Notes: generated from the sequence alone by a model not told the origin. Counted from the first letter of the whole stretch, positions 40,939 through 59,424 are shown. The stretch: DNA of 62,257 nucleotides, filler included, from Stramenopiles sp. TOSAG23-3 (GCA_900128585.1; 6 parts of 6 records of this genome joined end to end with filler, not necessarily neighbours in it), one strand, 5' to 3'. Program-made: numbers and translations.

Positions 40939-41155
40939 GGCGGGCATTTCCACAGGATTGGAATCCTGCGGAGATTTTAACAACAGGGCCCCAGAAACTA
41001 AAAATTACTGTCAGGTTGGGAAGGGGGAGGAAAAAGTGTTGTGTTTTCAAAAAGTGATTAATAATTCTTACTTTAAGCAAACGAGGTTTTAATACTTTGT
41101 AGCCCCAGTTGTACACCGTACCTCCTCGCAAATTCATTTTGTCAATATAAAAGTT

Positions 41156-41220
41156 AGGGTATGAGGAAGCTAAATTTAATTATCATATGTTACGTAAATA
41201 ACAGCCAATTTTCTTGTTTT
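41156..41220 (+). mobile_element. Short insertion element, copy A (65 bp), with 8-bp flanking direct repeat TAAAAGTT
   Basis: Core AAATAACAGCCAATTTTCTTGTTT at 41196-41219; direct repeats at 41148-41155 and 41221-41228. Confidence 0.7.
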
Positions 41221-41279
41221 TAAAAGTTTGAAAACAATATTTCACTCGCCGACTAAGACTAAGCGTACCACTTTAGTGG

Positions 41280-42584
41280 TCAATCCGCGCCTTGCTGAGT
41301 TTTGAATACTGTTGCAAACTGGTTTGTCATATTTATGTATAAACGCGCGGTGTTCTCTTTCTCAACCTCGTTAACGGATTCACTGTAGCCCACGTACTTT
41401 CCATCAATACGAAGCAAGCGCTGGAGGCGTTTGCACATTCTTTCTGCTCTTCTGGCCGAGTCACAGTTTTCAATGGTTGGTATGACTTTTGGTGTAGCTG
41501 GCTCGATTTGAGTGCCATGGATCCAATCATTAAAGCTATTGATAAACAATGCTTTGGGAAAAGGAACCAGCTCGAGCACACTTTGAAACCGAGTGCTGTA
41601 AAAGTATTCAGTACTGCCATGTGCTGGAACAGCACGAGGCTGTGACATGCTAGACTTACGCCATGGCCGAATTTTTCTGTCGTCGTAGCCAGGTGATATA
41701 GATGGAATGAACAGGATATTATTGCTGGTAGCATAATTGTTTATGTACTCCCAATTGCTAGTGTTACTCCCATACGCAATATCATCTGTTGCAAAGAACG
41801 TGGAGACCCCATCATATCCTTGGTCTACGGCATTTTGTAAACAGTCCTTGTGCACTACCGTAGCAATAAAAGTGAACCCTTCAAACCTTCCGCGCCTTAA
41901 AGACCCACGCAACATCAATGACGCTCCCATGTCTATCAAGTGGGCATCGTAAATGTAAAAAACTGGGCAAAACGATTTGTGACCACCGTACGCGCTCGTC
42001 AAATACGATACTGCGTCATAAACCTTTTGTCTGTCTCGTCCTCGAAACTCTTCTATTAAAAAGCCAACTTTTTGTCCGGCTTCAGCGGCCAGCTCCATGA
42101 GCAGTTTGACATTAGCATCAACATGAATACGATTTGAGATATCAGTAATTACGGAAGTAGACGAGGCCATACCGTCTTCATGGCTAATGCTCCAGGGCAC
42201 TATTAACACCTCGACGCCCGCCTCGATGGTATCTTGTATCTGCGCCGCCAACACGGATTTATCCCTGGACGAGTAGACTCCACGCTCTGGGTAATACTTT
42301 GATGGCAAGTCGTCGGGTGGTCGATATGAGACCCCCCTCGGAAGATTCCCGTGCACATTTCTGTCCCAATGTTCAATCACTGGATGGTTCCATTGCCGAT
42401 ATTCGGTATCATGCTCCGGGGCACCATAGCTCATCAGGAACAAGGCATGAGTCCGTGGCAAAGCGTGTTTATCCGCGCGATGATCTGCAGCACCAGCTAC
42501 ATCAACTTCCACAGTTACACTTGCAGCATCCTGTGCCATACACCACCCAACGATATATAGGATAATTACACCCCGGACGTTCAT
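41280..42584 (-). CDS. Glycoside hydrolase family 99 (endo-alpha-1,2-mannosidase/MANEA-like) protein with altered catalytic motif
   Basis: YRQWNH....HW, PPDDLPSKYYPERGVYSSRD, PVFYIYD, GYDG..TFFA, YGS...NW, FIPSISPGYDD..IRPW, INSFNDWIHGTQIEPA; N-terminal hydrophobic signal. Confidence 0.9.
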   Translation of the reverse strand: MNVRGVIILYIVGWCMAQDAASVTVEVDVAGAADHRADKHALPRTHALFLMSYGAPEHDTEYRQWNHPVIEHWDRNVHGNLPRGVSYRPPDDLPSKYYPERGVYSSRDKSVLAAQIQDTIEAGVEVLIVPWSISHEDGMASSTSVITDISNRIHVDANVKLLMELAAEAGQKVGFLIEEFRGRDRQKVYDAVSYLTSAYGGHKSFCPVFYIYDAHLIDMGASLMLRGSLRRGRFEGFTFIATVVHKDCLQNAVDQGYDGVSTFFATDDIAYGSNTSNWEYINNYATSNNILFIPSISPGYDDRKIRPWRKSSMSQPRAVPAHGSTEYFYSTRFQSVLELVPFPKALFINSFNDWIHGTQIEPATPKVIPTIENCDSARRAERMCKRLQRLLRIDGKYVGYSESVNEVEKENTARLYINMTNQFATVFKTQQGAD

Positions 42585-43789
42585 ACTTGCTGTTCTTCAA
42601 AGTAGCTACCAAATGGGACAACACCGTTTCTCCCAGTCAATATTGATCCTGCGCGACTTAATGATACCGATAGCGCTCCGAATCACATGTCTACCATGCC
42701 TCCTGCCATTGGGGGGGGGGGGTAATTTCAAATGAACAAGAATTGTCATTTTTATTATTTGTTTGTTTGTGTTTTTTGTTACGAAAATATAAGAAAAAAA
42801 AGCGCTGAGGAGGAGAAAAGGAGGAGCGAGAGAAGAAGAGGAGAGGAGAGGGAGGAAGAAGGAGTTATTTATCAAAAATATATAAAGTACACCACAGCAT
42901 CAGAGTTATTATTTATACTTGTAATATATACTCGTACAATGTATATAGAAGATGTATTTTTCAATTCTTTTGTGTGATGTGTGATTGCATTTTTTTCAAT
43001 TTTTGTTGTTGTTTCTCTGGGCTCTGGGCTCTGAGCTCTGGGGTCTCTTCTTGGTGAAAATAATAATCATCTGTAATATGTGATAGGAAGGTAATCATTG
43101 GTATAACTATATATAATTTGTAATAGTTCAGTGAATAACAGGAAATCATCAACTAATAAATAAACAACAATACTTGAATAATACTATTAACTATTAATAA
43201 AAGATAGTAATACCACAGTATATATTATAATATAGAATAAGAAGATGTACAAAACATTAAAAACTTCTTTAATTTAATAAAAAAAGAAGAAAGAAACTGA
43301 AAAGAGGGGGAAGAAGAGGAGGGATCTGAGGTATAATTAATAGCTTAGGTAAAAGAGGGGGAAGGATTATGACCAATAATGAGTCGAAGTACTTGACACT
43401 ACAACAACAACACAAATAACTATATAAATGAGACGAGGTACAGTTAAATTGTACATTGCTCTACATTCTACAGTGGCATACCAGAGAGAGAGACTAATTA
43501 TAATAAGAACAACAACTAAATATTATACCAGTGTGACTACTACTATATATATATCGCTTTTTATTCAACCAAGGAATGTGAGAAAGGAACCTTTACGCTT
43601 ACTCTGGTCGATCAATTGCAACCAATCCGGTATAACGTAGATAATATGCAGTAAAGTGAGTCAGAACATTTCCACGTTCGTATGCAAACAATTGTCAACA
43701 ATAGTCGTTATCTTGTTTGGTATAGACGATAGTGATGAAGAGAAGGTTGGCTGTGGTGTACCTTTTTGTGTGCGTCTTCCTTGGGCTGT

Positions 43790-43889
43790 NNNNNNNNNNN
43801 NNNNNNNNNNNNNNNNNNNNNNNNNNNNNNNNNTTAATTAATTAANNNNNNNNNNNNNNNNNNNNNNNNNNNNNNNNNNNNNNNNNNNN
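43790..43889. other. Artificial contig linker
   Basis: N44-TTAATTAATTAA-N44. Confidence 0.98.
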
Positions 43890-44369
43890 GTGATTATGAG
43901 GATTATGATTGGGTTCAGGATCGTATGGTAACATATCATAGGAATGATAATGATGGTCTCGACCGATTTTGATTTTTATGATTTTTATTAGTCATAGTCA
44001 CGAATTGACCTTACAATTGAGAGAATCTTGAGAGTCTTAAAACATACTATATAATTAGTGTTTTTTTTTATTTATTAATTTTTGTTTTTTTAAATTGAGA
44101 AGTGAATTAGTTTCAAAAAGACTGTCAAGAGGAAGGGAAGGGGGAAGCCAGGCTTCGAGTGTGTACCCTATTTACACGAACAGAAAACGATCAAACTCAG
44201 TACCGACCATTATTTCATCGAGCAGTACAACAGAGAACGAGCCCCTTTAAAAAATTTATGCCGCTGTTTACTAACCAATTGGAATCTTGACCAGTAATAG
44301 GGAAGGATCTGCAACAGGAGGATTTAAATGTACACACGTTGAAGAGATTGTGTTTTATTCACCCCTGGT

Positions 44370-58478: not shown

Positions 58479-58480
58479 GT

Positions 58481-58927
58481 GGGTATGCAACAACGGACAT
58501 TCGAAGCGCCATGATTTCCCCTGTTGATTCGTGGCTCCGGCCAGCGATCCAGAAACGCCTTTTTCCTGTCCTTGCCAAAAGGTTCTCGTTTGAAATCTCA
58601 TCCTTTGAATTTCGGGACCTTTTCTTTGTTAAGTATATGGCCGTGGCTGGGAAACAAAGCTATGTAGACGTACACCGAGACGGGAGCATTCTGTCTTTTA
58701 ATATTCTCCTTAATGAAGAAACCGAATTTGATGGAGGGGGCACTTGGTTTGAGCATACCCAGCGTACGCACCCGAACAAACGGGGGAACGCTTTGGTTCA
58801 CAGCGGAAAATTGCGACATGCTGGAACAGCAATTACTCGCGGTGTTCGTCTTATACTGGTGGGATTTATTGATGCAGGTGTTAAGGCTAGTGACCGACTT
58901 GAACTTCATTTTATGGACCCGTCGTGA
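58481..58927 (+). CDS. 3' part of a 2OG-Fe(II) oxygenase (lysyl/prolyl-hydroxylase-like domain)
   Basis: YATTD, DLFFVKY, HRD, SFNILLN...F.GGGT.F, H.GKLRHAG..IT.G.R.ILVGF, i.e. the HxD...H...R set; open to the contig edge. Confidence 0.9.
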   Translation, partial: GYATTDIRSAMISPVDSWLRPAIQKRLFPVLAKRFSFEISSFEFRDLFFVKYMAVAGKQSYVDVHRDGSILSFNILLNEETEFDGGGTWFEHTQRTHPNKRGNALVHSGKLRHAGTAITRGVRLILVGFIDAGVKASDRLELHFMDPS

Positions 58928-59054
58928 AAGAAAAGAGATTAAAATAAAATAACGACTGCTATGAATTAAATTAACAAATTAAATATACAAAAATAAATCA
59001 GTTCTTTATTATCATATTTAAAAAAAGAACCTATATATGTTAATTTAGTTTATC

Positions 59055-59169
59055 AGCAGAGATAAGTTGGCAGCACATGAAGGAACGTAAACCTCTAATG
59101 GACAAAAGGAGCAGATTTATTTTCGCAAGTACATTAATTACTTAAATAACAGCCAATTTTCTTGTTTAA
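59055..59169 (+). mobile_element. Short insertion element, copy C (115 bp), with 13-bp flanking direct repeat AATTTAGTTTATC
   Basis: Core at 59144-59167; perfect direct repeats at 59042-59054 and 59170-59182. Confidence 0.8.
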
Positions 59170-59184
59170 AATTTAGTTTATCTA

Positions 59185-59210
59185 TAAAATAACAGCCAAT
59201 TTTCTTGTTT
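59185..59210 (+). mobile_element. Short insertion element, copy D (26 bp, core only), with imperfect 13-bp flanking repeat
   Basis: Core at 59187-59210; TTTAGTTTATCTA (59172-59184) versus TATAGCTTATCTA (59211-59223), 11/13. Confidence 0.55.
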
Positions 59211-59424
59211 TATAGCTTATCTAAAATTATACAAAGTAAATGTTTCAACTTTCAACGTTGTAATTAAAAACACTTAACGTTGTAATTAATATTACTTTGT
59301 AAGAAAGTTCATTTTTGGATTTTATTTTGATAAAAATGTACGAAGTAATGCTTACTTTTTACGGTCTTCTTGCTACTTCTGTGTAATGTAAGTTTCAAGA
59401 AGATTTTATGGATAAAACCATGTG

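Follow-up and report, generated by a model that had tools for sequence, protein, structure and literature searches.

The locus and its inserts

The stretch of DNA analysed here (the window, i.e. the whole 62,257 nt) originates from Stramenopiles sp. TOSAG23-3 (GCA_900128585.1) and is composed of six contigs joined by N44-TTAATTAATTAA-N44 spacers. It harbours four copies (A to D) of a 24-nt sequence, hereafter the 24-mer, each located at one end of a small insert bracketed by direct repeats. With a probability of roughly 0.85, the 24-mer forms the conserved 3′ terminus in a family of retrotransposons that lack long terminal repeats (non-LTR) and are of the long interspersed nuclear element (LINE) type, from an uncultured marine eukaryote whose genome is compact. 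The four matches (41196, 59144 and 59187 on the plus strand, 49135 on the minus strand) are spread over three of the six contigs, as the initial annotation had stated; their number remains four when up to three mismatches are allowed, and the chance expectation in the window is zero (100 shuffles). The inserts range from 26 to 115 nt and, in agreement with the same annotation, each is flanked by a different repeat, interpreted as a target-site duplication (TSD). The features are as follows (UTR, untranslated region).

41156–41220, plus strand: insert of copy A, 65 nt, a 5′-truncated LINE 3′ end consisting of a lineage 1 UTR, the 24-mer tail and one T
41148–41155 and 41221–41228, no strand: TSD of copy A, 8 nt, exact, TAAAAGTT
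49135–49182, minus strand: insert of copy B, 48 nt, a 5′-truncated LINE 3′ end of lineage 1
49123–49134 and 49183–49194, no strand: TSD of copy B, 12 nt, exact
59055–59169, plus strand: insert of copy C, 115 nt, a 5′-truncated LINE 3′ end of another lineage (subfamily 2/3 UTR) with the same tail
59042–59054 and 59170–59182, no strand: TSD of copy C, 13 nt, exact
59185–59210, plus strand: insert of copy D, 26 nt, i.e. two bases and the 24-mer, directly after the downstream TSD of copy C
59172–59184 and 59211–59223, no strand: imperfect flanking repeat of copy D (11 of 13 positions), found by eye and not reported by the exact-match TSD search

The downstream repeat begins 1, 0 and 2 nt past the 24-mer in copies A, B and C (exact-repeat search) and 0 nt past it in copy D (by eye), so that the reported adjacency of one repeat to the T-rich end (within 0–2 nt) holds for the first three copies and, on visual reading, for the fourth. 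Copies A and B resemble the 3′ end of an element on a public contig, L001 (86% identity over 69 nt and 100% over 45 nt, respectively), and copy C is closest to the loci L105 (78% over 131 nt) and L107 (80% over 88 nt). Copy A carries about 13 nt of extra filler directly before the 24-mer (41180–41195 region).

All inserts lie between genes or open reading frames (ORFs), which are listed below.

39517–40938, plus strand: gene left of copy A, encoding BTB/POZ and pentapeptide repeats, 3′ end facing the insert
41280–42584, minus strand: gene right of copy A, glycosyl hydrolase family 99, 3′ end facing the insert
47049–48740 and 48562–49092, plus strand: ORFs left of copy B, overlapping in different frames
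49312–50109, minus strand: ORF right of copy B with no Pfam family, 3′ end facing the insert
58511–58927, plus strand: ORF left of copies C and D, 3′ end facing the inserts
59425–60279, minus strand: ORF right of copies C and D, 3′ end facing the inserts

On a crude map of ORFs of at least 120 aa, the copies occupy three of the four convergent spacers of the window and none of its 12 tandem or four divergent spacers. The flanking ORFs look eukaryotic and intron-poor (BTB with pentapeptide repeats, glycosyl hydrolase family 99, ataxin-10-like, major facilitator superfamily transporters). A Protein Atlas query with a housekeeping peptidase indicated no more than “eukaryote-like”. The gene at 39517–40938 is covered by RNA contigs, one of which (run X15) reaches 40934, 4 nt before the gene end, and another (run X17) 40993. 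The overlapping ORFs left of copy B may reflect a frameshift, an intron or two genes, and the choice between them shifts the distance of this copy to the nearest stop codon (about 394 nt versus about 43 nt).

Size and occurrence of the family

The exact 24-mer was found in at least 120 metagenome stretches and once in the genome collection, namely on L001, a 4.1-kb contig from a bin labelled as a bacterium; viral contigs gave 0 matches. In total, 146 exact copies are present in 121 public loci and the window. Since these loci were picked for carrying the exact 24-mer, the copy counts, length minima and background spacers given below are ascertained and not genome-wide. Apart from the exact copies, near copies with one, two, three, four and five substitutions number 14, 7, 10, 23 and 11, respectively (65 in all, from 122 sources), and five shuffled control patterns had no matches at one to five substitutions. 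The end which had been described as invariant is thus identical in the four copies of the window, but not throughout the wider family, in which copies decay. A second copy within 150 nt accompanies 31 of the 146 exact copies. A search of the literature text with 16-mers of the motif gave no match.

The locus around copy A was detected in 20 of the 24 runs listed, which belong to 14 studies (all marine or seawater) and include six RNA libraries. Placement of the contigs of two DNA and two RNA runs on positions 38000–43789 gave a summed contig depth of 1474, 7753, 314 and 43 for the bin holding the element, with flanks at about 3–5; this depth is not a copy number, and marks a highly repeated core (about 41190–41225) at which contigs break. 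As a side observation, the bin that contains L001 (G001, with L001 and L123–L128; labelled Dehalococcoidia) holds two LINE contigs of the families described here together with five long RVT_1 frames, which suggests that its retroelement contigs are mis-binned eukaryotic DNA.

Anatomy of the insertions

The insertion features of the window copies recur throughout the family. After copies with identical downstream flanks were dropped, 140 copies were retained and searched for exact flanking repeats (imperfect TSDs were not scored), with a downstream probe shifted by 60 nt as control. Repeats of at least 10 nt flank 39 of the 140 copies, as against 3 of 140 in the control; at a threshold of 9 nt, the figures are 51 and 6. 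The inserts defined by the 39 duplications comprise 12 of at most 35 nt, 10 of 45–67 nt, 10 of 79–188 nt, four of 261–335 nt and three of more than 900 nt, the last of which are probably chance matches, so that TSD-defined inserts range from 24 to about 335 nt.

The base following the 24-mer is T in 126 of the 140 copies. Reconstruction of 51 empty sites gave a target profile of T (0.61), T (0.61), A (0.57) or T (0.35), followed after the break by T (0.65), A (0.71) and A (0.69). In these sites the duplications are 9–15 nt long with a mode of 11–12 nt (the minimum of 9 being set by the search), and copy A has one of 8 nt. A single repetitive target (rDNA, spliced leader, U2 or a microsatellite) was considered and rejected, as the 51 target sites differ and have only the weak T-T-W|T-A-A in common. 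At the 5′ junction, microhomology of at least 2 nt between the end of the TSD and the element just upstream of the break was observed in 13 of 18 short inserts, compared to 80 of 900 null draws (mean 2.56 nt versus 0.39 nt). A fixed 3′ end, variable 5′ truncation and TSDs of variable length are therefore features of the family as a whole and, together with the 5′ microhomology, bear out the proposal that the inserts are products of target-primed reverse transcription. The puzzling pattern of the window is explained in this way as ordinary retrotransposition.

Lineages upstream of the common tail

The association of the tail with a LINE is evident on L001, where an ORF of at least 1191 aa, open at its 5′ end, terminates 91 nt before the 24-mer. 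The view of the initial annotation that the inserts are 5′-truncated copies of a non-LTR element with a T-rich tail (U-rich in the RNA) instead of poly(A) is supported in substance. Pieces of this ORF were detected by tblastn in 13 of the other 121 sources; wherever their position was checked (for example in L015, L027, L013, L106 and L068), they lie directly upstream of a tail and on the same strand. Some of these ORF-bearing copies are themselves flanked by TSDs, among them L027 (335-nt insert, 12-nt TSD) and L013 (325-nt insert, 13-nt TSD).

The sequences 5′ of the 24-mer form a few groups that have only the last ~30 nt in common. Group 1 corresponds to the 3′ UTR of the L001 ORF, while the ORF pieces of L019 and L068 (46% and 41% identical to that of L001, respectively) precede the group-2 UTR and a further UTR, each followed by the same tail. 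Such divergent ORF pieces before one and the same tail indicate that at least three diverged lineages have a common terminus. This also accounts for the mosaic noted earlier in the window, in which copies A and B were alike in one stretch and copies B and C in another: A and B fall in one upstream group and C in another, and several diverged lineages have only the last ~30 nt in common. A nested insertion occurs in L019, where a minus-oriented copy of 296 nt with a 15-nt TSD lies inside the tail region of a plus-oriented copy. Just 5′ of the 24-mer, a variable filler of a few to 13 nt separates AATTA from CTT (about 13 nt in copy A; TGAT, TCAT, TGTT and others elsewhere), which could derive from slippage or template jumping of the reverse transcriptase (RT).

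A tail supplied in trans would offer another explanation for these observations. In such a scheme, the last ~30 nt would be copied from a separate small RNA at which the RT starts, followed by a template switch to various LINE RNAs, and the common tail would be a result of template jumping. The identical tail in three lineages with 41–46% protein identity and the variable filler (in many copies, as in copy A) are what it would predict, and five of the 12 TSD-defined inserts of at most 35 nt begin exactly at the first base of the 24-mer. This pile-up is, nevertheless, partly due to ascertainment, since shorter copies cannot contain the search pattern, and microhomology with TSDs that end in TT or CTT explains it as well. 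Moreover, a separate gene encoding this RNA was not found, and tails common to LINE lineages and their dependants are ordinary. The scheme is hence considered unlikely, and the tail is regarded as the 3′ terminus of the LINEs themselves, presumably identical across diverged lineages because the RT must recognise it; recognition of this kind would be analogous to that in R2 and in further LINEs with an RT dependent on a specific 3′ end.

The encoded protein

A protein library search with the L001 ORF returned 295 matches, all fragments (58–419 aa among the 150 listed), and further searches gave partial proteins too. P0004, the longest relative found, shares 41% identity with the L001 ORF across 93% of the residues searched (1–1000) and extends the N-terminus; it is overlapped by two further fragments, P0158 (95% identity) and P0159 (79%), which weakly match Pfam RVT_1 (positions 1–91 and 1–86 of 205; E 0.0032 and 0.003). 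Across these overlapping pieces, the motifs KKKPxGQRPIAVGE, FPDAKNAF, QGDP and YADD (FADD in L001) follow one another, which, as read by eye, appears to be the canonical order of an RT domain. Five other RVT_1 frames from the bin of L001, which have Y/F-x-DD cores, were examined and set aside as other retroelements, unlinked to the present family by tblastn, hmmsearch and hhalign (probability 0.13).

Downstream of the RT, a Cys/His motif and a PD-(D/E)xK endonuclease are suggested by both motifs and a structural model. The C-terminal region exhibits the series C..C..H..C, QPD (QAD in L001), DVHF and KGQKY (by eye), which has its counterparts in the R2 endonuclease motifs CCHC, PD, D and K..KY (PMC4838377). 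An AlphaFold model of residues 715–1045 of the L001 ORF, built from 65 aligned sequences, reached a predicted local distance difference test score (pLDDT) of 76.5 and a predicted template modelling score of 0.76. The best PDB match of this model is the zebra finch R2 protein (R2Tg, 9dou_A; E 0.093, probability 0.85), and the first 15 ranks of the fold search include six R2 entries, followed by the type IIF restriction enzyme Bse634I and viral cap-snatching PD-(D/E)xK endonucleases. On the basis of fold and motifs, a weakly to moderately supported placement at group level among the LINEs with a restriction-like endonuclease (RLE; R2, R4, NeSL, CRE, HERO) is proposed.

Position relative to genes

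The near-exclusive location of the copies just past gene 3′ ends is the main point of interest of the family. Genes were approximated by non-overlapping ORFs of at least 150 aa and background spacers were taken from the same loci, which makes the comparison a within-locus one. De-duplication left 143 copies, of which 50 are at contig edges and 93 have an ORF on either side. The latter comprise 73 copies in convergent, 19 in tandem and one in divergent spacers, against 26.3, 44.8 and 21.9 expected by spacer length (chi-square p 2.5e-26). Furthermore, 91 of the 93 are located in the spacer half next to a gene 3′ end, where 52% are expected (p 3e-23), and other ORF cut-offs give a similar picture (97 of 99 at 100 aa and 72 of 74 at 250 aa). 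The bias past gene 3′ ends is real. The statement of the initial annotation that inserts occur only between convergent 3′ ends holds for copies A to D of the window; the wider family has the 19 tandem copies and the divergent one, and a decayed fifth copy in the window lies in a tandem spacer.

The three spacer classes are equal in AT content (0.66, 0.665 and 0.649), and the motif TTAA is 1.7-fold denser in convergent spacers, partly from the elements themselves. Sequence preference alone is thus not an explanation of the bias. Orientation is balanced (14 versus 13 for TSD-defined copies; 8 sense versus 11 antisense in tandem spacers). An apparent orientation bias, seen as an enrichment of antisense-tail 6-mers in the 120 nt after stop codons, was discarded, as it vanished once insert length was removed.

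Either directed integration or the survival of harmless insertions may be the cause of the bias; the earlier suggestion that the element targets transcription-termination zones is in keeping with its strength, but selection fits too. Active homing of the family to zones where transcription of RNA polymerase II genes terminates, guided by chromatin, by DNA or RNA structures associated with termination or by a bound factor rather than by DNA sequence, is offered as a tentative possibility. If true, such homing would be a “safe haven” strategy of a LINE in a gene-dense genome, comparable to the targeting of tRNA genes by other retrotransposons. A bolder extension of the idea is that the copies of 24–50 nt have become part of host 3′-end signals. 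A topic search of the literature (titles and openings of abstracts) found no report of a LINE biased to convergent gene ends or confined to gene 3′ ends.

The same location could be expected if the 24-mer were primarily a functional 3′-end signal, i.e. a terminator, polyadenylation or mRNA-stability element that is kept by the host and whose mobility is secondary or long past. In the RNA libraries, contigs have the core 3–87 nt from the contig end, and the SIDER2 retroposons of Leishmania, which according to published abstracts reside largely in 3′ UTRs and promote mRNA decay, provide a precedent. Contigs cannot, however, show transcript ends, and a signal of this kind is difficult to reconcile with the equal use of both orientations, with TSDs that differ from site to site, with the decay evident in the 65 substituted copies and with the one of four convergent spacers in the window that has no copy. 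It is accordingly viewed as somewhat less likely still than a tail supplied in trans.

Weighing of the retrotransposon interpretation

Several results weigh against the assignment to an RLE-type LINE family, in addition to the ascertainment of the loci. A full-length, autonomous copy that combines 5′ UTR, entire ORF and tail was found in none of the 121 loci; RT, endonuclease and tail were never seen together on a molecule, and the chain linking them consists of overlapping fragments from different contigs. The two RVT_1 matches score 17.7 and 17.8 bits, under the curated cut-off of 29.6 bits, because only half of the domain is present; Pfam detects no RVT_1 in the L001 ORF or in P0001–P0005, P0004 included. 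Neither the ORF nor a profile retrieved anything relevant from the PDB by sequence. The AlphaFold model of the whole of P0004 (pLDDT 51.9) has no RT palm and its fold search returned noise (best E 1.4), and no match of the C-terminal model reaches E 0.001. Neither a hidden Markov model of the N-terminal region nor an hhalign comparison linked it to the five other RVT_1 frames of the same bin. At the level of the insertions, 46 of the 140 copies have no exact repeat of at least 7 nt (89 in the control), and folding of four tail RNAs revealed no structure beyond that of shuffled controls (z −0.63 to 0.81). The empty alleles that the initial annotation proposed to look for were not seen in contigs on the copy A locus, which break at the element; a single X3 contig runs from 41121 straight on to 41199, has just 28 letters to one side of this joint and is left uninterpreted. 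Similarly, 25 locus pairs with long alignments contained only two indels, neither of them with a tail-bearing insert.

The inserts had alternatively been read on the opposite strand, as 3′-truncated retrocopies of a spliced leader or another small RNA. That strand does carry GT after the fixed end, but Rfam gave no match, either at gathering thresholds in the window or at E ≤1 in a pair of long copies. On the strand of the tail, the variable side runs on into the 3′ UTR and ORF of a LINE, which makes the fixed end the downstream terminus of an element with an ORF. This end adjoins the TSD with T microhomology, as would be expected where reverse transcription starts, and the reading is consequently rejected as very improbable. 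A short interspersed nuclear element (SINE) was also rejected as a candidate, given the same lack of Rfam matches (E ≤1) in the two long copies, the absence of any tRNA found in the window and the continuation of the bodies into ORF pieces. Least plausible of all is that the inserts, which are small and have flanking direct repeats, represent a miniature DNA transposon (MITE) or else an artefact of assembly or adapters. TSD length varies (8–15 nt), truncation affects one end while the other is fixed, and no terminal inverted repeats were noticed by eye in the copies read (no inverted-repeat search was made on them). The 24-mer is contiguous with an ORF and lies within genomic sequence in contigs of several accession prefixes, with many core-bearing contigs in four separate runs and the surrounding locus in runs of 14 studies.

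For the LINE family, the following mechanism is proposed. The elements would encode one large protein with an RT, a Cys/His motif and a restriction-like PD-(D/E)xK endonuclease in this order, as in the R2 group. The endonuclease would nick the bottom strand at the weak T-T-W|T-A-A site, and the freed 3′-OH would pair with one or two terminal U residues of the element RNA, upon which reverse transcription would begin at the tail and usually halt after 24 to a few hundred nt. The cDNA end would then be joined to the upstream target end via 2–5 nt of microhomology, and a second-strand cut 9–15 nt away would generate the TSD. Copies would pile up past gene 3′ ends either by directed insertion or by survival in a gene-dense genome.

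Comparison with known systems

In its mode of action the element would work like an R2-group LINE without site specificity. R2 inserts at a single site in the 28S rDNA, whereas the present element uses many sites with the weak T-T-W|T-A-A preference. Further differences are the ~500 aa between YADD and the Cys/His motif and the failure to reach the Pfam RVT_1 cut-off. The likeness to R2 and related RLE LINEs (R2Bm, R2Tg) lies in the order of RT, Cys/His motif and PD-(D/E)xK endonuclease (PMC4838377), in the proximity of the C-terminal model to R2 structures, in a defined 3′ end that is not poly(A) and in the occurrence of 5′-truncated copies. Most RLE clades are described as target-specific, HERO being the one clade said to contain many non-specific families (PMC4640811), to which the present family is likened by description of its non-specific insertion.

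The closest described analogue, again likened by description, is the EhLINE1/EhSINE1 pair of Entamoeba histolytica, which belongs to the class with a restriction-enzyme-like endonuclease, shows no targeted insertion, lies in intergenic regions near genes and generates TSDs (PMC1635306). According to a proposal, the T-rich 3′ tail of these elements pairs with bottom-strand DNA rich in A; upstream of the insertion point lies a stretch rich in T (PMC1635306). In contrast, the Entamoeba enzyme prefers GCATT and the available text of the report states no bias to gene 3′ ends (PMC1635306); further, the Entamoeba tail is common to a LINE and its SINE, and the present tail to several LINE lineages.

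A partial parallel to the NeSL/Utopia elements, i.e. RLE LINEs some of which carry an Ulp1-like cysteine protease domain (PMC4640811), was noticed in a related LINE family, the L123 type. The ORF of L123 (150–2654, minus strand) extends for about 450 aa beyond the endonuclease region and gives a faint match to Peptidase_C48 (Ulp1-like; E 0.11) there. The protease of NeSL/Utopia is, however, N-terminal and these elements target spliced-leader or U2 genes, whereas the faint L123 match is C-terminal, below any threshold and accompanied by no such target.

Truncation, TSDs of variable length and microhomology at the 5′ junction are known from 5′-truncated L1 insertions, and the same features were measured here for the present family; L1 differs in having an endonuclease of the apurinic/apyrimidinic (AP) type and a poly(A) tail. 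The parent elements of the SIDER retroposons of Leishmania belong to another LINE group. SIDERs provide a precedent, since abstracts describe them as short remains of truncated retroposons found mainly in 3′ UTRs. They differ in being extinct and in having a documented role in mRNA decay, whereas the present family has many undecayed copies (146 exact) and no function shown.

These copies thus add an apparently undescribed and divergent LINE family from an abundant uncultured marine eukaryote, and the RT of this family escapes the Pfam cut-off. They also provide natural data of unusual clarity on target-primed reverse transcription by an R2-like, non-site-specific enzyme, with a defined tail other than poly(A), truncations graded down to 24 nt and junction microhomology that can be measured. 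The location of 91 of 93 copies makes it testable whether transposons in compact genomes find safe sites or get filtered. Moreover, the conserved 24-mer can serve as a practical marker for metagenome contigs of this organism, including those mis-binned into bacterial metagenome-assembled genomes.

Other retroelement remnants and minor features of the window

Apart from copies A to D, the window contains three remnants of related elements.

9112–9165, minus strand: decayed fifth copy with a subfamily-3-like UTR and a deleted or shortened tail (88% identity over 34 nt to L105, the remainder by eye)
43892–44067, plus strand: 3′ end of a second, related LINE family (L123 type), made up of the final 26 codons and a UTR with a terminal T run
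44173–44322, plus strand: tail-less fragment, 84% identical over 159 nt to the UTR of the third LINE lineage (L068)

The decayed copy is situated about 70 nt past the stop codon of the minus-strand gene at 9232–10650. The L123-type remnant, inside which contig 4 begins, is 96% identical to L123 over 174 nt (88% over the 26 aa up to the ORF end). The initial annotation's remark that the window holds no RT gene thus stands for the RT itself, but the last 26 codons and 3′ UTR of this related LINE are present. Its tail differs from the 24-mer; an 18-mer of the tail was found in 17 of 128 loci, often sharing spacers with the 24-mer. The tail-less fragment adjoins the 3′ end of the minus-strand gene at 44370–45761.

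Two minor features concern the assembly. The ends of contig 2 form a perfect inverted repeat of 79 nt (14640–14718 and 29095–29173), probably an assembly or amplification artefact, and the short N runs at 2765–2782 and 50705–50720 lie within purine-rich microsatellites of the GAAA/GAA type.

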